From Escherichia coli (GTDB lineage Bacteria > Pseudomonadota > Gammaproteobacteria > Enterobacterales > Enterobacteriaceae): DNA of 64,000 nucleotides. The stretch lies in assembly GCF_022846255.1 (NCBI RefSeq), contig NZ_AP025682.1; one strand, 5' to 3'. Made by a program: the position numbers and the translations under genes. Numbering within the stretch: the first letter of the stretch is position 1; each line of letters begins with the position of its first letter. A model generated the notes under the pieces. It saw nothing but the letters and a program-made list of their open reading frames with translations. It did not search any database and had not been told where the DNA came from. Of this stretch, positions 8,684 through 19,644 are shown piece after piece.

Positions 8684-8740
8684 TTTCTCTTCATCATCGG
8701 GGCTGAGACATCTCTGCCCCGATGATGACAAACGCAAAAT

Positions 8741-8840
8741 TGCCTGATGCGCTATGCTTATCAGACCTACATGAACCCTGCAATATATTGAATTTTTGCG
8801 CTTTTGTAGGTCGGATAAGGCGTTTACGCCACATCCAGCA
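8741..8840. repeat. BIME: two REP (palindromic unit) copies in opposite orientation
   Basis: TGCCTGATGCGCTATGCTTATCAGACCTACA ... TGTAGGTCGGATAAGGCGTTTACGCCACATCCAGCA, matching the E. coli REP consensus. Confidence 0.8.
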
Positions 8841-8867
8841 TGAACAAAGCGCGCGTTGTCAACAATC

Positions 8868-8897
8868 TGAGGGCAGAAACATCTCTGCCCTTTTTCT
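8868..8897 (+). terminator. Rho-independent terminator of the fruBKA transcript
   Basis: GGGCAGA-aacatc-TCTGCCC followed by TTTTT. Confidence 0.75.
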
Positions 8898-8911
8898 TGC
8901 CTGCCATATTG

Positions 8912-8927: not shown

Positions 8928-9138
8928 ACTTTCTCTTTTGTTGCTGCATAAATAGACAAATTTTGTGACCGCCTTCATATCTGGCCGATTTCGTTTTTTC
9001 TGATCGATTTACATTACGTTAAACATGCTTATTATGAACATGTGTTTAAATCTGAACACGTGCTCTAATAGTCTTATTGACTGTAATGACTATTTTACCC
9101 AATTTCTTCGTTGGCAATTTATTGCCAGGGGGCGTGCT

Positions 9139-10080
9139 ATGCGCGAAAAGGACTACATAGTAATTATTGGCTCGGCGAATATTGATGTGGCTGGGTATTC
9201 ACATCATCCATTGAATTATGCGGATTCGAATCCCGGAAAAATTAAATTTACCCCAGGTGGCGTGGGAAGGAATATCGCTCATAATCTGGCGTTACTGGGG
9301 AAAAATGCCTGGCTTTTAAGTGCAGTAGGTGGTGATTTTTATGGGCAATCATTACTGGCGCAAACTAATCAATCCGGTGTTTATGTCGATAAATGCTTAA
9401 TTGTTCCGGGTGAGAATACATCCAGCTATTTATCACTGCTCGATAATACAGGAGAAATGCTTGTCGCGATAAATGATATGAGTATTAGTGACTGTATTTC
9501 TGCAGAATTTCTTGCCCAGCATCAGGAGTTTATTCGCGGTGCAAAGGTTATTGTCGCGGATTGCAACCTTAGTGAAGAGGCGCTGGTCTGGGTTCTGGAA
9601 AATAGCGGGGAAACGCCTGTATTTATTGATCCGGTATCGGCATGGAAATGCGTCAAAATCCGCGATCATCTGAGCAAAATCCATACGTTAAAACCTAACC
9701 GTCTTGAAGCCGAAACGTTGAGCGGAATTGCACTTTCCGGACGTGAAGATGTCGCAAAGGTCGCCGCCTGGTTTCATCAACACGGCCTGAACCGCCTGGT
9801 GCTGAGCATGGGAGGGGATGGCGTTTACTACAGTGATATCAACGGTGAAAGTGGGTGGTCGGCCCCTATTAAAACGAATGTCATCAATGTTACTGGGGCA
9901 GGCGACGCCATGATGGCGGGGCTGGCCTCCTGTTGGGTAGACGGTATGCCGTTTATCGATTCTGTTCGATTTGCGCAGGGATGTTCGTCAATGGCACTTG
10001 CCTGTGAATATACCAACAACCCTGAATTATCAATTGCCAATGTTACATCGTTAGTGGAGAACACAGAATGTCTGAATTAA
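9139..10080 (+). CDS. psuK: Pseudouridine kinase (PfkB family)
   Basis: Track ORF 9025..10080 trimmed to ATG 9139 (MREKDYIVIIGSANIDV..., 313 aa); ribokinase-like GGVGRNIAHNLALLG and C-terminal GAGDAMMAG motifs. Confidence 0.88.
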   Translation: MREKDYIVIIGSANIDVAGYSHHPLNYADSNPGKIKFTPGGVGRNIAHNLALLGKNAWLLSAVGGDFYGQSLLAQTNQSGVYVDKCLIVPGENTSSYLSLLDNTGEMLVAINDMSISDCISAEFLAQHQEFIRGAKVIVADCNLSEEALVWVLENSGETPVFIDPVSAWKCVKIRDHLSKIHTLKPNRLEAETLSGIALSGREDVAKVAAWFHQHGLNRLVLSMGGDGVYYSDINGESGWSAPIKTNVINVTGAGDAMMAGLASCWVDGMPFIDSVRFAQGCSSMALACEYTNNPELSIANVTSLVENTECLN

Positions 10081-11006
10081 CTCTGTCCCCTGAATTATTA
10101 CAAATATCCGCTGAAGTACAGGATGCTTTAAAAAATAAAAAACCGGTTATTGCGCTGGAATCGACCATAATTTCTCACGGAATGCCATTCCCACAAAATG
10201 CCCAAACCGCAATTGAAGTAGAAGAAACAATTCGTAAACAGGGCGCAGTACCAGCCACTATCGCCATTATTGGCGGCGTGATGAAAGTGGGCTTAAGTAA
10301 AGAAGAAATTGAATTGCTGGGCCGTGAAGGACATAACGTGACGAAAGTTAGTCGTCGTGATTTACCTTTTGTCGTTGCAGCAGGGAAAAATGGCGCAACC
10401 ACCGTTGCATCAACCATGATTATTGCAGCACTGGCTGGGATTAAAGTTTTTGCAACCGGAGGTATTGGTGGTGTGCATCGCGGAGCGGAACATACCTTCG
10501 ATATTTCTGCCGATTTACAGGAACTGGCAAATACCAATGTCACTGTTGTTTGTGCGGGGGCAAAATCTATTCTCGATTTAGGATTAACAACAGAATATTT
10601 AGAAACCTTCGGTGTACCGTTAATTGGTTATCAGACAAAAGCGCTGCCTGCGTTTTTCTGCCGAACCAGCCCATTTGAAGTCAGCATTCGTCTTGACAGT
10701 GCCCGCGAAATTGCTCGCGCGATGGCAGTGAAGTGGCAAACCGGTTTGAACGGCGGCCTGGTGGTAGCGAACCCGATCCCGGAACAGTTTGCGATGCCAG
10801 AAGAAACCATCAATGCAGCAATTGATCAAGCCGTTGCTGAAGCCGAAGAACAGGGTGTTATTGGGAAAGAGAGTACACCGTTCCTGCTGGCGCGTGTTGC
10901 GGAGCTAACCGGCGGTGATAGCCTGAAATCCAATATTCAACTGGTCTTTAATAACGCCATTCTGGCGAGTGAAATAGCCAAAGAATACCAGCGTCTCGCG
11001 GGTTAA
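10068..11006 (+). CDS. psuG: Pseudouridine-5'-phosphate glycosidase
   Basis: 312-aa ORF overlapping the psuK 3' end by 13 nt; recognised sequence. Confidence 0.9.
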   Translation: MSELTLSPELLQISAEVQDALKNKKPVIALESTIISHGMPFPQNAQTAIEVEETIRKQGAVPATIAIIGGVMKVGLSKEEIELLGREGHNVTKVSRRDLPFVVAAGKNGATTVASTMIIAALAGIKVFATGGIGGVHRGAEHTFDISADLQELANTNVTVVCAGAKSILDLGLTTEYLETFGVPLIGYQTKALPAFFCRTSPFEVSIRLDSAREIARAMAVKWQTGLNGGLVVANPIPEQFAMPEETINAAIDQAVAEAEEQGVIGKESTPFLLARVAELTGGDSLKSNIQLVFNNAILASEIAKEYQRLAG

Positions 11007-11099
11007 TTTCTGACGGGCAGAAAGCCGTCGCCCGTACTCATCAAGCATACCAAAACCTGGCGCTGACGCCGGGTTTACTGGCATGAAGGGAAAATCATT

Positions 11100-12350
11100 A
11101 TGGATATAATGAGAAGTGTTGTGGGGATGGTGGTGTTACTGGCAATAGCATTTCTGTTGTCAGTGAATAAAAAGAGCATCAGTTTGCGCACGGTTGGAGC
11201 CGCACTGCTGCTGCAAATCGCTATTGGTGGCATCATGCTCTACTTCCCACCGGGAAAATGGGCAGTAGAACAGGCGGCATTAGGCGTTCATAAAGTGATG
11301 TCTTACAGTGATGCCGGTAGCGCCTTCATTTTTGGTTCGCTGGTTGGGCCGAAAATGGATGTCCTGTTTGACGGTGCGGGTTTTATCTTCGCCTTTCGCG
11401 TACTTCCGGCGATTATTTTCGTTACTGCGCTCATCAGTCTGCTGTACTACATTGGCGTGATGGGGCTGCTGATTCGCATCCTTGGCAGCATTTTCCAGAA
11501 AGCCCTCAACATCAGCAAAATCGAATCTTTTGTTGCGGTTACCACTATTTTCCTCGGGCAAAATGAGATCCCGGCGATCGTTAAACCGTTTATCGATCGC
11601 ATGAATCGCAACGAGTTGTTTACCGCAATTTGTAGCGGGATGGCGTCCATTGCTGGTTCGATGATGATTGGTTATGCCGGAATGGGCGTACCAATTGATT
11701 ACCTGTTAGCGGCATCGCTAATGGCGATCCCTGGTGGTATTTTGTTTGCACGTATTCTTAGCCCAGCCACCGAGCCTTCGCAGGTGACATTTGAAAATCT
11801 GTCGTTCAGCGAAACGCCGCCAAAAAGCTTTATCGAAGCGGCGGCGAGCGGTGCGATGACCGGGCTCAAAATCGCCGCTGGTGTGGCGACGGTGGTAATG
11901 GCATTTGTGGCGATCATTGCGCTGATCAACGGCATTATTGGTGGAGTTGGCGGCTGGTTTGGTTTTGCCAATGTCTCTCTGGAAAGCATTTTCGGCTATG
12001 TGCTGGCCCCGTTGGCATGGATTATGGGGGTGGACTGGAGTGATGCAAATCTTGCCGGAAGTTTGATTGGGCAGAAACTGGCGATTAACGAATTTGTCGC
12101 TTACCTGAGTTTTTCGCCATATCTGCAAACGGGCGGCACGCTGGAAGTGAAAACCGTGGCGATCATCTCCTTTGCGCTGTGTGGTTTTGCTAACTTTGGT
12201 TCTATCGGTGTTGTCGTTGGAGCGTTTTCGGCTATTTCGCCAAAACGCGCACCGGAAATCGCCCAGCTTGGTTTACGGGCGCTGGCAGCAGCAACGCTTT
12301 CCAACCTGATGAGCGCGACCATTGCCGGGTTCTTTATTGGTTTAGCTTGA
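11100..12350 (+). CDS. psuT: NupC-family (CNT) nucleoside permease
   Basis: 416-aa polytopic membrane protein; near-identical paralog of the 14286..15536 ORF. Confidence 0.9.
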   Translation: MDIMRSVVGMVVLLAIAFLLSVNKKSISLRTVGAALLLQIAIGGIMLYFPPGKWAVEQAALGVHKVMSYSDAGSAFIFGSLVGPKMDVLFDGAGFIFAFRVLPAIIFVTALISLLYYIGVMGLLIRILGSIFQKALNISKIESFVAVTTIFLGQNEIPAIVKPFIDRMNRNELFTAICSGMASIAGSMMIGYAGMGVPIDYLLAASLMAIPGGILFARILSPATEPSQVTFENLSFSETPPKSFIEAAASGAMTGLKIAAGVATVVMAFVAIIALINGIIGGVGGWFGFANVSLESIFGYVLAPLAWIMGVDWSDANLAGSLIGQKLAINEFVAYLSFSPYLQTGGTLEVKTVAIISFALCGFANFGSIGVVVGAFSAISPKRAPEIAQLGLRALAAATLSNLMSATIAGFFIGLA

Positions 12351-12416: not shown

Positions 12417-13076
12417 TTACTGCATCATCCCGGAGAATTTATTCTCCGGGTCCATCTCCAGCGCCAGTCCTGACAACTGCTTTCTGTTTTTAATGAGATA
12501 CCCTTTCTTGCTTTTAATTAATAAACCGTCATTAATGAATTGCGCAAGAACATATAAAAGATGTCGATAAGAAACGCCTAAATACTCTGCCGCTTGCGTA
12601 TGCTTTTCGTGATAAAGATCACCTTCCTGCGAGAGTAATATAAAAGCTGCCAGGCGATTCACTAACGGAAATGATTGATTCTGAGTTAAAGAAACAATAT
12701 TACGATAATTTTTATGACTTAAGGTGACGCAGAGTTTTCGTAAAAATAGCGTGTCGTTTAATAACAACGGGCGGTAATGCTTCATAGGGAGCGCAAGACA
12801 CCAACACTCTTCAATAGCCTGCACTGCACGCGGTTCATGGTCTTTGTCGATTAACTCAATCTCGCCAATAAAACAGGGCGCGGCAAAGAAATCGATCAGC
12901 GACACGCGACCATTAGCAAGCGTGACGTAAAGCCTGGCGCGGCCTCGCGTCAGGTAAAACAGCCAGGACGGCTGTTGCCCTTCCTGCACAATGTAGTCAC
13001 GCGCTAAAAAATGAAACAGCCGCGTATCGGCTGAAACATCCGTTGAAAAGCAATCCTTAAACGCAGATTCACTCAT
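12417..13076 (-). CDS. yeiL: Crp/Fnr-family transcriptional regulator
   Basis: Track ORF trimmed to [14 protein letters not shown]... (219 aa); cNMP-binding-like fold region and C-terminal HTH ([16 protein letters not shown]). Confidence 0.85.
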
Positions 13077-13244
13077 CAATTGCTGCTTAAGATCATTATT
13101 GTGGATTTCTTTCACGATGTTTATCCGCTATGAGATTTCTCATATTTAGCATACGTACGCTGTTGTTAAGATTCAATCATCGGCCAGGTCGAATTTTCTT
13201 TGCTGTAGAAACAATAACGCAACTGGAAACAGAGGAAATAAACA

Positions 13245-14186
13245 ATGGAAAAGAGAAAAATTATTCTGGATTGTGATCCGGGTCATGATGATGCTATTGC
13301 TATAATGATGGCGGCGAAACATCCGGCGATTGATTTATTAGGTATCACCATTGTAGCGGGTAATCAAACCCTCGATAAAACATTAATTAATGGCCTGAAT
13401 GTTTGCCAGAAACTGGAGATTAATGTTCCGGTTTATGCGGGGATGCCGCAGCCCATTATGCGTCAACAAATCGTTGCCGATAATATTCACGGTGAAACCG
13501 GACTGGATGGCCCGGTATTCGAGCCGCTGACCCGCCAGGCAGAAAGTACCCATGCGGTGAAATACATCATTGATACCCTGATGGCAAGCGATGGCGATAT
13601 CACTCTGGTGCCGGTTGGTCCACTTTCAAACATCGCGGTGGCAATGCGTATGCAACCCGCAATCCTGCCCAAAATCCGTGAAATTGTGCTAATGGGCGGC
13701 GCTTACGGTACAGGCAACTTCACGCCATCTGCCGAGTTCAACATCTTTGCCGACCCGGAAGCAGCCCACGTAGTGTTCACCTCTGGCGTTCCATTAGTGA
13801 TGATGGGCCTCGATCTCACCAACCAGACCGTTTGCACCCCGGACGTGATTGCCCGGATGGAAAGGGCAGGCGGCCCTGCCGGAGAGCTGTTCAGCGACAT
13901 CATGAACTTCACTCTCAAAACCCAGTTCGAAAACTACGGTCTGGCTGGCGGCCCGGTACATGACGCCACCTGTATCGGTTATCTGATTAACCCCGATGGC
14001 ATTAAAACCCAGGAGATGTACGTCGAAGTGGACGTCAACAGTGGCCCTTGTTACGGGCGTACCGTCTGCGACGAGCTGGGCGTTCTTGGCAAGCCCGCCA
14101 ATACAAAAGTCGGCATCACTATTGATACCGACTGGTTCTGGGGATTAGTCGAAGAGTGCGTGCGCGGCTACATCAAAACCCACTAA
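13245..14186 (+). CDS. rihB: Pyrimidine-specific ribonucleoside hydrolase
   Basis: 313-aa ORF with the N-terminal DCDPGHDDA nucleoside-hydrolase signature. Confidence 0.92.
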
Positions 14187-14198
14187 GTGGTGATATCA

Positions 14199-14232
14199 AG
14201 CCGGGTCTGTATCGCAAGATGCAGGCCCGGCT
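14199..14232 (+). terminator. Imperfect hairpin downstream of rihB (possible attenuator/terminator)
   Basis: AGCCGGGTCTG...CAGGCCCGGCT stem with one mismatch, followed by ATTTCT. Confidence 0.4.
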
Positions 14233-14285
14233 ATTTCTGATGGGCAGAAAGCCGTCGCCCAAAATGACATGAAGAGATAATAACT

Positions 14286-15536
14286 ATGGATGTCATGAGA
14301 AGTGTTCTGGGAATGGTGGTACTGCTGGCAATTGCGTTTTTGCTGTCAGTAAACAAGAAGAAGATCAGCCTGCGTACCGTTGGCGCGGCGTTAGTGTTAC
14401 AGGTCGTGATTGGCGGCATTATGCTTTGGTTACCGCCAGGGCGTTGGGTCGCAGAAAAAGTCGCTTTTGGCGTGCATAAAGTGATGGCGTACAGCGACGC
14501 GGGTAGCGCATTTATCTTTGGTTCTCTGGTCGGACCGAAAATGGACACCTTATTTGATGGCGCAGGATTTATCTTTGGTTTCAGGGTATTACCGGCAATT
14601 ATCTTCGTTACAGCACTGGTGAGTATTCTCTACTACATCGGTGTGATGGGGATCTTAATTCGCATTCTCGGCGGTATATTCCAGAAAGCATTGAATATCA
14701 GCAAGATTGAGTCATTCGTCGCGGTCACTACCATTTTCCTCGGGCAAAACGAAATTCCGGCAATCGTCAAACCCTTTATCAATCGTCTGAATCGCAATGA
14801 ATTATTTACAGCGATTTGTAGCGGGATGGCCTCGATTGCTGGTTCGACAATGATTGGTTACGCCGCACTGGGCGTGCCTGTGGAATATCTGCTGGCGGCA
14901 TCGTTAATGGCGATCCCCGGCGGGATCTTGTTTGCCCGCCTGTTAAGCCCGGCAACAGAATCTTCGCAGGTTTCCTTTAATAACCTCTCTTTCACCGAAA
15001 CACCGCCAAAAAGCATTATTGAAGCCGCTGCGACAGGGGCAATGACCGGGCTGAAAATCGCCGCAGGTGTGGCGACAGTAGTGATGGCATTTGTCGCCAT
15101 CATTGCGTTAATTAACGGTATTATCGGCGGCGTTGGCGGCTGGTTTGGCTTTGAACATGCCTCGCTGGAGTCCATTTTAGGTTACCTGCTGGCCCCACTG
15201 GCGTGGGTAATGGGTGTTGACTGGAGTGATGCGAATCTTGCCGGGAGTTTGATTGGACAGAAACTGGCAATAAATGAATTTGTCGCTTACCTCAATTTCT
15301 CACCTTATCTGCAAACAGCTGGCACTCTGGATGCTAAAACCGTGGCGATTATTTCCTTCGCGTTGTGCGGTTTCGCTAACTTTGGTTCTATCGGGGTGGT
15401 GGTGGGGGCGTTTTCTGCGGTTGCGCCACACCGTGCACCGGAAATCGCCCAGCTTGGTTTACGCGCGCTGGCGGCGGCGACACTTTCTAACCTGATGAGT
15501 GCAACCATTGCAGGATTCTTTATTGGCTTAGCGTAG
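14286..15536 (+). CDS. nupX: NupC-family (CNT) nucleoside permease, paralog of psuT
   Basis: 416-aa ORF, about 85-90% identical to the psuT product along the full length by eye (last ~40 residues identical). Confidence 0.9.
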   Translation: MDVMRSVLGMVVLLAIAFLLSVNKKKISLRTVGAALVLQVVIGGIMLWLPPGRWVAEKVAFGVHKVMAYSDAGSAFIFGSLVGPKMDTLFDGAGFIFGFRVLPAIIFVTALVSILYYIGVMGILIRILGGIFQKALNISKIESFVAVTTIFLGQNEIPAIVKPFINRLNRNELFTAICSGMASIAGSTMIGYAALGVPVEYLLAASLMAIPGGILFARLLSPATESSQVSFNNLSFTETPPKSIIEAAATGAMTGLKIAAGVATVVMAFVAIIALINGIIGGVGGWFGFEHASLESILGYLLAPLAWVMGVDWSDANLAGSLIGQKLAINEFVAYLNFSPYLQTAGTLDAKTVAIISFALCGFANFGSIGVVVGAFSAVAPHRAPEIAQLGLRALAAATLSNLMSATIAGFFIGLA

Positions 15537-15550
15537 TGCGCGAGTTATGA

Positions 15551-15584
15551 GCCGGATAAGATGTAGTCAAGCGTCGAATCCGGC
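15551..15584. repeat. REP-like palindromic unit between nupX and yeiI
   Basis: GCCGGATAAGATGTAGTCAAGCGTCGAATCCGGC. Confidence 0.7.
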
Positions 15585-15591
15585 AACATTG

Positions 15592-16680
15592 TTACACCAT
15601 CGGCACTAATGAAAGCGCGTTATCGGCAGACAGGGTAGGGTTGTTTAAGCTGCCGCTGGCGCGTGAAATTGCCGCGCAGGCCATCGCAAAACGGGCGCTG
15701 TCACGGAAATTGTTTCCCTCCAGAAAGCTATATACCAGGCCCGCCATAAAACCATCGTCAGCACCAAAACTGTCTACTGTCGTATGCGCTGGCGCTGTCA
15801 GCAAAAATTGCTCTCCATCCTTTTCGCTGCAATAAACTGACTCATCGGGCAAATAAACAAACAGTTGCTGAACGCCTTGCTGATGCAACGCATTCACTGC
15901 GGCATTACGGTCAGCATCGCTGGTGATCGCCTGTCCCCATAAAATTTCCAGCTCCGGTAAAGTGGGTTTCAGGGTGTGAATATGCGCCAGCCAGTGTTTG
16001 ATTTTGCCCGCTTTGAATTCTGAAACGGTATCGACAAACACCGGGATTTCATCAGCGAGGGTAAAGACCCATTCCAGCGCCTCGGCTGTCAGGTTACAAT
16101 CAGCAAGTACCACGCCCGCATGACGAAGTAAATCGCGCGACCCGTTCAGTAGTTGCGGTGTCAACTGATCCAGCAGATGGGTATCGTTAATCGCCAGCAC
16201 GGTTTGATCGTCTCGATTGGCAATTGCCAGATACGTCGATGTGCTTTGGCCATGTAAACGAACGCAGCCGGAGACATTCACGCCGGCGCGGCGCGTTTCT
16301 TCCAGGAGCATTTCGCCATAAAAGTCATCGCCAATCACTGAAAGCAAATGGACGTCGCGGCCTAACAGCGCCAGATTGTGGGCGATATTGCGTCCAACGC
16401 CGCCTGCCGAGCAATGAATGGTACCGGGATGAGAAGCCGCTTGCGGGTAACGGATATCCGCCATCCCGCGAATATCCATATTGATTGTCCCCACCACTAC
16501 GCAGTATTCCTGCTCGGTGAGAATGTAACCTTTGCCTTTAATCCGGCCTTTGCGCATTAAATCCATAATATGCGCCGCAACGCGCGAACGGCTGATTTGC
16601 AGCATATCCGCAATTTCGTTCTGTTGAATCAGCGGGTTACGCCGTAAAATTTTAAGAATCTGCTTTTCCCTGTCGTTCAT
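15592..16680 (-). CDS. yeiI: Putative kinase: N-terminal winged-helix HTH fused to a PfkB-family (pseudouridine-kinase-like) carbohydrate kinase
   Basis: 362-aa ORF; N-terminus QNEIADMLQISRSRVAAHIMDLMRKGRI (HTH-like), then GGVGRNIAHNLALLG as in PsuK; start lies 3 nt after the nfo stop. Confidence 0.88.
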   Translation of the reverse strand: MNDREKQILKILRRNPLIQQNEIADMLQISRSRVAAHIMDLMRKGRIKGKGYILTEQEYCVVVGTINMDIRGMADIRYPQAASHPGTIHCSAGGVGRNIAHNLALLGRDVHLLSVIGDDFYGEMLLEETRRAGVNVSGCVRLHGQSTSTYLAIANRDDQTVLAINDTHLLDQLTPQLLNGSRDLLRHAGVVLADCNLTAEALEWVFTLADEIPVFVDTVSEFKAGKIKHWLAHIHTLKPTLPELEILWGQAITSDADRNAAVNALHQQGVQQLFVYLPDESVYCSEKDGEQFLLTAPAHTTVDSFGADDGFMAGLVYSFLEGNNFRDSARFAMACAAISRASGSLNNPTLSADNALSLVPMV

Positions 16681-16683
16681 CGA

Positions 16684-17541
16684 TCAGGCCACCGCTTTTT
16701 CAGTTTGTTGCGCTTTCAGCCAGGCGATCTCTTCTGCCCAGATATCCGGGTTGATGGTTTCAAGGATCAGCGGAATGCCGTCGAAACGGTCGTCCTGCAT
16801 GATCCAGCGGAACGCATCATGACCGATATTGCCTTCACCGAGGCTATGATGGCGGTCAACGCGGCTGCCAAAGGTGCTTTTCGCATCGTTAAGGTGCATC
16901 CCGCGCAGATACTTAAAGCCGACAATACGGGCAAAATCCGCGAACGTTTTCTCGCATTCGGCAGAAGTACGCAAATCATACCCGGCAGCGAAAGCATGGC
17001 AGGTATCAATGCAGACGCCGACGCGGGATTTATCTTCCACGCCGTCGATAATCGCCGCGAGATGTTCGAATTTAAACCCTAAGTTACTGCCCTGACCGGC
17101 GGTGTTTTCAATCACCGCTGTCACACCTTGAGTTTTATCCAGCGCAATGTTGATGGATTCGGCAATACGCGCAAGGCAATCCTCTTCTGAAATCTGCATC
17201 AGATGGCTGCCAGGGTGGAAGTTGAGCAAAGAAAGCCCCAGCTGTTCGCAACGCTGCATTTCATCTATAAACGCATCGCGCGATTTTTCCAGAGCTTCAG
17301 CGACCGGATGTCCGAGGTTAATCAGATAACTGTCGTGGGGAAGAATTTGCGCCGATGTGTAGTGATATTTTTCACAGGCGGCTTTGAATTCATCGATGGT
17401 TTGCGTCGTGAGCGGTGCGGCACGCCACTGACGTTGGTTTTTGGTGAACAAGGCAAACGCGGTTGCGTCGATTTCGGCGGCGCGAATTGCGGCATTTGCC
17501 AGACCGCCAGCAGCACTAACGTGCGCTCCAATGTATTTCAT
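16684..17541 (-). CDS. nfo: Endonuclease IV (AP endonuclease)
   Basis: 285-aa [16 protein letters not shown]... TIM-barrel AP endonuclease, recognised sequence. Confidence 0.95.
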
Positions 17542-17614
17542 GCGAGGACTCCTGTTAAACCCGCTGGAGGAAAACGATAATGATAGCGGGTTAACAGGAG
17601 CAAGATGTAGTGGT

Positions 17615-18664
17615 TTATGCGATGACGCTTTGAATCACATAGTTAATCGCACCACCACCAACAATCAGCCAGGCAAACAGTACCAGTGCCATCAGCAGAG
17701 GTTTCGCCCCGGCTTTTTTCAGCGCGCTGACGTGAGTGGTCAGACCCAGCGCCGCCATCGCCATTGCCAGCAGGAAGGTATCCAGCGTTACCAGCATGTT
17801 CACCACGCTCTGCGGTAACAGGTGGAACGAGTTAAAGATGGCAACTACGATGAACAAGATGGCAAACCACGGAATAGTGATTTTGCTTTTCTCGCCGCTG
17901 TTCGCCCCAGACAGCTGTTTAACACGCGCCGCCAGCAGGATGAGGAACGGAGCCAGCATCATCACGCGCAGCATTTTGGAAATAACTGCTGCGTTTTCTG
18001 CATCCGGGCTGATGGCATGACCTGCCGCCACCACCTGCGCCACTTCGTGCACAGTAGAACCAATGTAGATACCGAAAGTTTCCGGACTAAACCATTGAGA
18101 CATCAGCGGATATATCGCCGGGTAGAGGAAAATCGCCACGGTCCCGAAGATAACAACGGTTGCAACAGCCACGGTTACTTTACTGGCTTCCGCTTTCACT
18201 ACCGGCTCAGTCGCCAGTACCGCGGCAGCACCACAGATACTGCTACCGGCACCGATCAACCAGCTGGTGTGCTTATCCAGACCAAACACTTTCTGCCCCA
18301 GGAAGCAAGCCAGCAGGAAGGTACTGGACAGCGTCAACACGTCAATGATGATCCCACTGATACCGACATCGGCAATTTGCGAGAACGTCAGACGGAAGCC
18401 ATAAAGAATGATACCCAGACGTAATAAATATTGCTTGGCAAACAGCACACCACCGTCACAGCTTTTCCAGATGTGCGGATAGATGGTGTTGCCTAAAACC
18501 ATCCCCAACAAGATTGCGAGGGTGAGGGCACTAAACCCGGCACCCGCAACCGCGGGAATGGAACCACCCCACAGGGCGACCCCGGTGATAACTGCACTCA
18601 GGGCTAACCCCGGAATAAAATGCCACAGTGTACGATGTTGTTTCTGTAAGGTGATATTCGTCAT
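17615..18664 (-). CDS. yeiH: UPF0324-family inner membrane protein
   Basis: 349-aa polytopic membrane protein; divergent from the LysR gene yeiE. Confidence 0.88.
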
Positions 18665-18762: not shown

Positions 18763-19644
18763 ATGCACATCACCCTCCGGCAGTTGGAAGTTTTTGCAGA
18801 AGTATTGAAAAGTGGATCAACCACCCAGGCGTCGGTGATGCTGGCGTTGTCGCAATCAGCAGTGAGCGCAGCCTTGACCGACCTGGAAGGGCAGCTTGGC
18901 GTGCAACTGTTTGATCGCGTGGGGAAAAGACTGGTTGTTAATGAACACGGGCGGCTGCTCTATCCGCGCGCGTTGGCACTGCTTGAACAGGCGGTTGAAA
19001 TCGAACAACTGTTTCGCGAAGACAACGGCGCGATTCGTATCTATGCCAGTAGTACTATCGGTAACTACATTCTGCCTGCAGTCATTGCCCGTTATCGCCA
19101 TGATTATCCGCAGTTGCCGATTGAACTTAGCGTTGGGAACAGCCAGGACGTGATGCAAGCGGTGCTGGATTTCCGCGTTGATATTGGCTTTATTGAAGGA
19201 CCGTGCCACAGCACTGAAATCATTTCTGAACCGTGGCTGGAAGACGAGCTGGTGGTTTTCGCCGCGCCGACTTCGCCATTGGCTCGTGGTCCGGTCACCT
19301 TAGAACAGCTGGCCGCTGCGCCGTGGATCCTGCGTGAACGCGGCTCCGGCACGCGGGAGATTGTCGATTATCTGTTGCTGTCACATTTACCGAAGTTTGA
19401 GATGGCGATGGAATTAGGTAACTCCGAGGCAATCAAACATGCGGTGCGTCATGGGTTGGGAATTAGTTGCCTGTCGCGACGGGTGATTGAAGATCAATTG
19501 CAGGCAGGCACATTAAGTGAAGTTGCGGTCCCTCTGCCGCGCCTGATGCGTACGTTGTGGCGTATACATCATCGGCAAAAACACCTTTCCAACGCGCTAC
19601 GGCGCTTTCTGGACTATTGCGATCCCGCGAATGTACCGCGTTAA
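18763..19644 (+). CDS. yeiE: LysR-family transcriptional regulator
   Basis: 293-aa ORF with N-terminal HTH ([24 protein letters not shown]) and a LysR substrate-binding domain. Confidence 0.9.

Follow-up and report, generated by a model that had tools for sequence, protein, structure and literature searches.

We analysed a 64,000-nucleotide stretch of the Escherichia coli chromosome (contig NZ_AP025682.1; hereafter the window), which is core genome, with the focus on yeiI, a gene that lies directly behind nfo, the gene for endonuclease IV. The yeiI coding sequence (CDS; 15592..16680, minus strand), defined by the open reading frame (ORF) list, Pfam and structure matching, encodes a 362-residue protein in which a winged helix-turn-helix (HTH) is fused to a PfkB domain like that of the pseudouridine kinase PsuK (EC 2.7.1.83). 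Our reading, which we hold at a probability of about 60%, is that YeiI is a pseudouridine-responsive repressor of the psuKGT operon (9139..12350, plus strand), a PsuK paralogue that works mainly as a transcription regulator. As two annotated E. coli genes, nfo and yeiI are ordinary neighbours; the assignment of YeiI as a regulator, and the family of HTH-PsuK kinase-repressors with a conserved operator to which it would belong, are apparently unpublished. YeiI is among the E. coli genes still without an assigned function and no named psuKGT regulator was found in the searched literature; one hypothesis would join both gaps.

YeiI is called uncharacterised in a structure paper on E. coli pseudouridine kinase (PUKI; PMC9061257) and again in a 2025 critique of machine-learning annotation, where 'pseudouridine kinase' is rejected as its function (PMC12506659). 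It also figures in a published list of predicted transcription factors, with no target given. Searches of the literature for a psu-operon regulator, for PsuR and for HTH-PfkB proteins with pseudouridine gave nothing relevant. A paper on LeuO refers to 'YeiI' as a characterised LysR-type regulator; this is almost certainly a slip for YeiE, YeiI being without LysR domains, and was not used.

Pfam assigns residues 1–48 of YeiI to HTH_24 (PF13412; E 2.7e-11, 43.3 bits with the cutoff at 21.9), a winged HTH of Lrp/AsnC-like type, and residues 58–348 to PfkB (PF00294; E 5e-68, 230 bits against a cutoff of 25.8). The winged HTH and an invariant KGKGYIL linker occupy codons 1–54 (16519..16680, minus strand), as judged from the Pfam match and from the secondary structure of an AlphaFold2 (AF2) model. 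This model, calculated from a 90-sequence alignment, has a predicted local distance difference test score (pLDDT) of 93.9; the HTH, where pLDDT is 85–96, consists of helices 3–14, 20–27 and 31–43 followed by a beta wing at 47–53. The modelled PfkB domain superimposes on the E. coli pseudouridine kinase structure 7vtd with a target-normalised template-modelling score (TM-score) of 0.96 and an r.m.s.d. of 1.5–2 Å in Foldseek, which also matched ribokinases, and the closest solved structure to YeiI is that of the same enzyme in 7vkp (E 2.8e-67). No PDB chain covers the N-terminal 54 residues and no HTH-PfkB combination was found among solved structures. The N-terminal GG substrate motif is present (GGVGRN, residues 93–98), G93 and G94 being invariant in 90 homologues. 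YeiI matches its own NCBIfam family, NF007416, with 814 bits (cutoff 561) and fails the PsuK equivalog NF007355 with 257.9 bits against a cutoff of 540, a model on which the PsuK of the window scores 709. A preliminary description of this stretch had proposed a winged HTH fused to a PfkB domain near pseudouridine kinase, quoting the peptide QNEIADMLQISRSRVAAHIMDLMRKGRI (residues 20–47 of YeiI), and the Pfam and structural matches bear this out.

The HTH is the best-conserved part of the protein, at 48–96% identity across homologues vs 35–84% for the rest. R4, I8, P16, Q20, R31, A35, G45, G49, G51 and Y52 are invariant over 26 diverse homologues, and the segment is 64–74% identical to that of other proteobacterial HTH-PsuKs. 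The suggestion in the same description that YeiI is a one-component regulator sensing a modified nucleoside fits these data and is probably right.

The relatives of YeiI point to psuG. We surveyed 77 loci, one genome per species, annotated by tblastn with E. coli proteins and with up to 10 kb of flank on each side; 66 loci outside the YeiI clade had enough downstream sequence to be informative. Proteins of HTH-PfkB architecture are common: of the best 150 representatives (30–45% identity), most align with YeiI from residue 1. The HTH-PfkB gene lies directly upstream of psuG on the same strand in 65 of the 66 informative loci, which span Yersinia, Serratia, Hafnia, Photorhabdus, Gilliamella, Shewanella, Vibrio, Aeromonas, Betaproteobacteria, many Clostridia, Spirochaetes and a Lutibacter; the order in Yersinia is HTH-PfkB, psuG and a concentrative nucleoside transporter (CNT) gene. 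The sole exception, not followed by psuG, is a second, shorter HTH-PfkB paralogue of Xenorhabdus ehlersii (L020, 10001–11026; 355 aa) that has canonical NxxE and GAGD motifs and a truncated C terminus.

These HTH-PsuK fusions, for example in Yersinia kristensenii (P0065), Serratia, Shewanella, Vibrio and many Clostridia, share with YeiI the architecture, the invariant linker, an HTH of 48–74% identity and the same palindromic motif at the psu promoter. They differ from it in their canonical NxxE, GxxG and GAGD motifs and in being the first gene of a psuK-psuG operon, and hence an HTH-PsuK is presumably the kinase of its organism. No experimental characterisation of such fusions was found in the searched literature. 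YeiI stands outside this apparently autoregulated type, since it is encoded behind nfo and the palindrome is found at a separate, HTH-less psuK and not at its own start.

Loci of the YeiI clade have a common layout, in which yeiH, nfo and yeiI run towards an oppositely oriented psuK, psuG and psuT, with a psuK of 313 aa that lacks the HTH. This order is found in E. coli, E. albertii, three Citrobacter, two Enterobacter and Leclercia; an inserted yeiL-rihB-nupX block is peculiar to E. coli. Two more distant YeiI-like genes, in Affinibrenneria (57% identity) and on metagenomic contig L086 (P0104, 42%), also face psuT, psuG and an HTH-less psuK, with no nfo upstream of them. The constant partner of YeiI is therefore the psu operon and not nfo.

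A candidate operator emerges from the same loci. Aligned leaders of HTH-psuK genes from Yersinia, Hafnia, Serratia, Photorhabdus and Gilliamella share an almost unchanging block in which two palindromes are spaced by 18 bp. AAACA/TGTTT arms came top in a de novo inverted-repeat tally of 67 HTH-psuK upstream regions, and the palindromes, often yAAACAnnTGTTTr, precede the start codon by 15–60 bp, in Proteobacteria as in Clostridia and Spirochaetes. Between −100 and +12 of the start, AAACA-NN-TGTTT with at most one mismatch was observed at 33 of the 67 loci, vs a mean of 1.3 (maximum 5) in dinucleotide shuffles and none in 56 control windows 3 kb away. With at most two mismatches the numbers are 57 of 67, a mean of 11 (maximum 21) and 4 of 56, respectively. 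An initial guess at the operator, AACAAACNNNNGTTT from the Yersinia leader, has no match in the window; its register was wrong, the correct core being AAACA-NN-TGTTT. Since the palindrome travels with the HTH-PfkB gene across phyla, this HTH is its most likely binder. The ancestral HTH-PsuK very probably represses its own promoter through this palindrome of 12–14 bp until pseudouridine binds.

The motif recurs at psuK of E. coli, a gene that encodes no HTH. The best promoter match 5' of psuK is TTTACA-16-TATTAT (9008..9035, plus strand; 10/12 in the promoter scan), within a block conserved in Enterobacteriaceae. Immediately after its −10 element comes predicted operator 1, GAACATGTGTTT (9036..9047), with one mismatch to AAACA-NN-TGTTT, and 18 bp further on, centre to centre, a weaker operator-like site 2, GAACACGTGCTC (9054..9065), with three. 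The tandem 18-bp layout is that of the Yersinia, Serratia, Hafnia and Photorhabdus HTH-psuK leaders, and GAACAtgTGCTCTAATA is conserved in the Enterobacteriaceae alignment. The block is conserved 5' of the HTH-less psuK in Citrobacter, Enterobacter and Leclercia, with a perfect CAAACAGATGTTTG in Enterobacter sichuanensis; the motif also occurs in Affinibrenneria, and contig L086 carries it ahead of its HTH-less psuK. Of the proteins found in the psu/yeiI loci of Enterobacteriaceae, YeiI alone has a cognate HTH, and the psuK promoter is its predicted DNA target.

Four sites with at most one mismatch occur in the 64-kb window, roughly the chance number (about 3 expected), and only that at 9036–9047 is intergenic. 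A motif scan of the window found no comparable operator-like site upstream of nfo, yeiI or rihB. The one-mismatch sites at 17909–17920 in yeiH and 19003–19014 in yeiE are coding and at chance level, and were not counted as targets. Escherichia and some of the Citrobacter or Leclercia loci share these palindromes, probably by chance plus coding constraint, and they may be extra sites.

The psuK upstream region has two further features. A CRP-like box, TGTGAccgcctTCATA (8964–8979), lies about 70 bp 5' of the predicted transcription start and is conserved in 9/9 aligned Enterobacteriaceae psuK upstream regions, which suggests catabolite control of the psu operon. The psuK frame is open for 38 codons upstream of the ATG at 9139, a stretch that takes in the predicted operator and the last part of the −10 element, and this extension is probably untranslated. 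A 351-aa ORF (9025–10080) was considered as a remnant of an HTH in psuK and rejected, because its additional part overlaps the promoter and operator and because the conserved start is the annotated one.

How YeiI and PsuK came to coexist is suggested by a neighbour-joining tree of the kinase domain (200 bootstraps). The YeiI clade is recovered at 100% and the HTH-less PsuK clade at 97.5%; support is 90% for a group of PsuK, Yersinia-type HTH-PsuK and Gilliamella, and 93% for the larger group that also takes in YeiI. The YeiI branch is the longer, with distances to outgroups of 1.15 for YeiI, 0.95 for PsuK and 0.89 for Yersinia-type HTH-PsuK. The simplest history would be that an HTH-PsuK duplicated within Enterobacterales, the operon copy losing its HTH and the copy that kept it changing faster.

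By its substitution rates yeiI is not decaying. Its ratio of nonsynonymous to synonymous substitution rates (dN/dS) is 0.05–0.08 vs E. albertii, Citrobacter, Enterobacter and Leclercia, and dN of the HTH is 0.016–0.03 for the first three and 0.076 vs Leclercia. These values bear on the idea that YeiI is a redundant or vestigial sugar kinase paralogue with no regulatory role, the psuK palindrome being bound by some other factor. The bare annotation 'sugar kinase' would suit that idea, as would the searched literature, which reports no phenotype, and the CRP-like box suggests that other regulators act at the psuK promoter. It is nevertheless scarcely credible for a gene whose HTH is the most conserved part, with such low dN in three of the four species compared, and which is present in 5422/5426 E. 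coli genomes; moreover, the palindrome accompanies the HTH-PfkB gene across phyla, pointing to that HTH as the binder.

The yeiI gene exists as two deeply diverged alleles in E. coli: 3360 complete genomes carry one at least 95% identical to that of the window and 2060 carry one of about 81.5% nucleotide identity (86% for the protein). HTH, TxxE and GADD are kept in both, and the haplotype of the divergent allele (L085) has nupX cut to a 66-bp remnant. The psuK region (8950–10080) is also dimorphic, the window allele being at least 99% identical in 1194/5426 genomes and the others having diverged beyond the reach of megablast. In one strain whose yeiI-nfo stretch is identical, PsuK is only 88% identical, and the region is thus a mosaic of old alleles.

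We next consider the pseudouridine pocket and the catalytic motifs. Residues were mapped through an ungapped alignment in which the YeiI residue equals the PsuK residue plus 53, with contacts from the structures of E. coli PsuK (PMC9247573, PMC9061257). YeiI keeps 11 of the 12 pseudouridine contacts, S30, N143 and K170 among them. In PsuK numbering, the retained ribose and base contacts are N14, D16, G41, V42, N45, Y97, N143, V166, S167, K170 and D256, and the lid serine S30 is kept as well. The YeiI equivalents N67, D69, S83, N98, N196, K223 and D309 are conserved, and among pseudouridine-recognition residues only M114 at the base clamp is changed, to T, in 100% of the YeiI clade. D29, beside S30, is replaced by A or S.

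The catalytic motifs were compared between 44 YeiI-clade members and 188 canonical homologues at positions at least 80% conserved in the canonical set. Three of them are altered. From codon reading, T240 (15961..15963, minus strand) replaces PsuK Asn187 of the NxxE Mg/phosphate motif, giving TxxE (TLPE in YeiI), with T in 98% of the YeiI clade vs N in 92% of canonical homologues; Asn187 lies at the putative Mg2+ site of the E. coli enzyme (PMC9247573). The clade comparison shows that the small ATP-binding loop GxxG (GGDG in PsuK; described in PMC9247573) is lost, G225 and G228 being replaced throughout the YeiI clade, here by PDES at codons 278–281 (15838..15849, minus strand). Finally, by codon reading at D308–D309 (15754..15759, minus strand), the GAGD anion hole has become GADD. 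This change, G255D, is present in 98% of the YeiI clade vs G in 91% of canonical homologues, and leaves the catalytic Asp309 in place. TxxE and GADD occur together in 45/45 full-length sequences at least 66% identical to E. coli YeiI; more divergent YeiI orthologues have variants of both motifs, and HTH-PfkBs of at most 54% identity are all canonical. NxxE is further eroded, to ARQD in Entomohabitans and to SLDT in Phytobacter; Affinibrenneria has SQHE. In P0104, on a deep YeiI-like branch, GAGD has become GIDN with loss of the catalytic Asp, while HTH, S30, N143 and K170 are kept.

The altered ATP and Mg motifs suggest that YeiI senses pseudouridine without consuming it, although with the catalytic Asp retained it may still have some remaining or modified kinase activity. 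A psuK mutant cannot use pseudouridine (PMC12506659), and hence YeiI does not substitute for PsuK.

From these features we infer the following model. The ancestor would have been a single protein, combining a winged HTH with an active PsuK and encoded by the first gene of a psuK-psuG(-transporter) operon. In Enterobacterales its two roles would have been split, the copy without the HTH staying an enzyme, PsuK, and YeiI keeping the HTH and the pocket with three ATP, Mg and phosphoryl-transfer motifs altered. A YeiI dimer would set its two HTHs on the palindromes at 9036–9047 and 9054–9065, just 3' of the psuK −10 element and over the transcription start, so that bound YeiI would block psuKGT transcription. 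In E. coli PsuK the homodimer is held by a beta-thumb lid, and pseudouridine drives lid closure with contacts that include Ser30 of the partner subunit (PMC9247573, PMC9061257). The AF2 model and alignment place the KGKGYIL linker between the HTH and the first strand beside this lid. Pseudouridine at the dimer-forming lid of the kinase-like domain may therefore alter the geometry of both HTHs and free the DNA.

Several points weigh against this model. The searched literature yielded no direct binding, expression or enzymatic results for YeiI. The E. coli operator is imperfect, with one mismatch at site 1 and three at site 2, and in two Enterobacteriaceae species the best psuK site has two or three; the palindrome in this family could be bound by another factor. 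The phylogeny was built by neighbour-joining alone, and the strong purifying selection seen in the kinase-like domain would be expected just as much of an enzyme. YeiI also keeps, besides D309, Glu190 and Asp164 of PsuK (Glu243 and Asp217 in YeiI), and N187T and G255D, which always come together, could be compensatory and leave a working kinase.

The last of these points lead to a different proposal, that YeiI is a bifunctional 'trigger enzyme', an active kinase for pseudouridine or a related modified or C-nucleoside that also binds DNA. N187T and G255D would then compensate each other at the Mg2+ site, and M114T would adjust the specificity for the base. The three acidic residues and the ribose and base contacts are retained, the co-occurrence of TxxE and GADD is what compensation predicts, and M114T is fixed at the base-clamping position; low dN/dS extends to the kinase-like domain, and the canonical HTH-PsuK relatives evidently are both enzyme and HTH protein. 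We nevertheless regard an active YeiI kinase as rather unlikely. The GxxG ATP loop is lost as well, NxxE has eroded in Entomohabitans and Phytobacter and changed in Affinibrenneria, and P0104 has lost the catalytic Asp. Moreover, every genome with YeiI beside psu genes has a complete HTH-less PsuK, and the psuK mutant does not grow on pseudouridine (PMC12506659).

Loss of the catalytic Asp is also seen in other HTH-PfkBs on two metagenomic contigs, L087 and L088 (GTSG and GAAS), the gene of one belonging to an operon for an ABC transporter and that of the other preceding a nucleoside hydrolase gene. In L088 an AAACA-NN-TGTTG site lies between the regulator-like gene and the downstream operon. 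These proteins may be independent conversions to pure regulators.

The proposed role of YeiI as psuKGT repressor has parallels of design in known systems. NagC and Mlc are not known to have kinase activity. Like YeiI, these ROK repressors (PMC4288165, PMC3553997) carry an N-terminal HTH on an effector-sensing domain of sugar-kinase fold and have paralogous true kinases in the genome; their fold is that of ROK/ASKHA kinases, not PfkB/ribokinase, and there is no sequence homology. The trigger enzymes RbkR (an archaeal riboflavin kinase and regulator), BirA, NadR and PutA (PMC5397151) resemble YeiI in joining a winged HTH to a metabolic enzyme domain used as sensor, and RbkR lineages are inferred to have lost the DNA-binding domain to become monofunctional kinases, as PsuK would have here (PMC5397151). 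They belong to other enzyme families and stay active, whereas for YeiI we propose a split, after duplication, into an enzyme copy and a regulator copy. PsuK itself (YeiC; 7vkp, 7vtd; PMC9061257, PMC9247573) shares the PfkB fold, 38–39% identity, the pseudouridine contacts and the nucleoside gene cluster with YeiI, but is without the 54-residue N-terminal winged HTH and without N187T, GGDG to PDES, G255D and M114T. YeiI, unlike PsuK, lies outside the psuG operon, fails the equivalog cutoff and does not replace PsuK genetically (PMC12506659).

If the model is correct, it suggests that in many bacteria a fused kinase and repressor controls pseudouridine recycling, through an operator that lineages from Clostridia to Proteobacteria have in common. 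YeiI and PsuK would then show, in a clean natural case, how a protein that is both enzyme and regulator can divide into an enzyme proper and a sensor whose catalytic motifs are altered. A pseudouridine-responsive repressor and its operator could serve as a biosensor for strains making pseudouridine for mRNA therapeutics. The case is also a warning against homology-based annotation of YeiI as a second pseudouridine kinase.

We turn now to the junction with nfo. Both genes are on the minus strand in the ORF list, nfo at 17541..16684 and yeiI at 16680..15592. The nfo gene encodes 285 aa, ends with TGA at 16686..16684, matches Pfam AP_endonuc_2 (E 8.8e-69) and is annotated by RefSeq as 'nfo: deoxyribonuclease IV'. 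Direct reading of the minus strand gives TGA-TCG-ATG, that is, nfo stop, a 3-nt spacer (16681..16683) and yeiI start, corresponding to CAT CGA TCA on the plus strand (16678–16686). The preliminary description had noted such a same-strand 3-nt junction, leaving the strand unstated. The gap is 0–3 nt in 10/10 Enterobacteriaceae-type junctions examined, from Escherichia, Citrobacter, Enterobacter, Leclercia and Phytobacter, and a scan of the junction found no minus-strand terminator-like site. The two genes belong to one co-expression module with soxS, soxR, zwf, fumC, sodA and fpr (PMC11446759).

From the short junction in ten loci, the absence of a terminator and the common co-expression module, yeiI is probably co-transcribed with nfo by read-through from the nfo promoter, perhaps also from an internal promoter. 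The co-transcription claimed earlier thus stands as likely. An independent yeiI promoter, which was to speak against it, is partly live: a survey by genomic SELEX (systematic evolution of ligands by exponential enrichment) includes the nfo>yeiI interval among its RNA polymerase sigma-70 sites (PMC3946193), and an additional promoter is therefore possible. Only weak promoter-like matches were found, one at 16676–16649 inside the yeiI CDS and one at 17002–16975 inside nfo (9/12, the level of shuffles), and none is claimed.

The pairing with an AP endonuclease had been taken as a hint at damaged-nucleotide handling, with YeiI sensing or phosphorylating a damaged nucleoside and working with endonuclease IV, and it is true that the short junction is conserved over Enterobacteriaceae, that both genes are co-expressed with the SoxRS regulon (PMC11446759) and that the clade-specific pocket changes D29A/S and M114T could alter the ligand. 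Such a partnership is very improbable, however. The nfo adjacency is limited to the YeiI clade: nfo was not found near a non-YeiI HTH-PfkB gene in any of about 70 loci, with up to 10 kb of flank on either side. Affinibrenneria and L086 keep the psuKGT neighbour and not nfo, and upstream of nfo there is no operator-like site. As the adjacency is confined to one family and lost where psu adjacency persists, a shared function with endonuclease IV is unsupported; the nfo-yeiI linkage is a feature of Enterobacteriaceae gene order, and nothing supports more.

Phytobacter sp. V91 (L084, 7091–9052) provides a single case of the converse arrangement. Its nfo-yeiI pair is kept with a 0-nt gap, whereas psuKGT is missing at the locus and fruA follows directly. 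YeiI is eroded here, the lid serine S83 being changed to A, the NxxE glutamate lost (SLDT) and N standing at the M114 position where the clade has T. This is opposite to what damage handling with endonuclease IV predicts, and fits relaxed constraint after loss of the psu operon.

A more far-reaching conjecture is that the position of yeiI behind the SoxS-activated nfo promoter is adaptive, superoxide stress raising YeiI and so retuning pseudouridine uptake and catabolism during turnover of oxidised RNA, and that HTH-PsuK and YeiI form an uncharacterised family of transcription factors, spread over phyla, that respond to pseudouridine and share a conserved operator. We regard this conjecture as doubtful; if true, it would tie an oxidative-stress regulon to modified-nucleoside salvage.

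The wider locus is a nucleoside-catabolism cluster, in which yeiI has psuK within 7 kb, lies about 5.5 kb from the psu operon, is convergent with it on the opposite strand and is in no operon with psuG. By ORF and annotation the cluster consists of psuK (9139–10080, plus; without HTH), psuG (10068–11006, plus), psuT (11100–12350, plus), yeiL (12417–13115, minus), rihB (13245–14186, plus) and nupX (14286–15536, plus), followed by yeiI and nfo, then yeiH (17615–18664, minus) and, beyond it, yeiE and lysP (both plus). The 2.5-kb stretch around yeiI-nfo, annotated as nupX, yeiI ('sugar kinase'), nfo and yeiH, is 100% identical in several strains and present in 5425/5426 complete E. coli genomes. 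The yeiL-rihB-nupX block (12417–15536), which E. albertii, Citrobacter, Enterobacter and Leclercia do not have between psuT and yeiI, looks like an E. coli-specific insertion into the yeiI/psu junction.

The intergenic spacers contain several inverted repeats. That between the convergent nupX and yeiI (15537..15591) has a REP-like (repetitive extragenic palindromic) hairpin, GCCGGAT/ATCCGGC, of 7 bp and with no U tract; as a distinctive element 3' of yeiI it was dismissed, its fold (−17.5 kcal/mol, z −0.97) being no more stable than shuffles. REP-like palindromic elements also occur in the fruA-psuK spacer (8700–8900), where a good intrinsic terminator follows fruA (8869–8892 and a T run). Finally, the 73-bp yeiH-nfo spacer contains an 8-bp inverted repeat, AACCCGCT...AGCGGGTT (17560–17600), just 5' of the nfo ribosome-binding site, so that the nfo promoter must overlap the end of yeiH or carry a hairpin in its leader.

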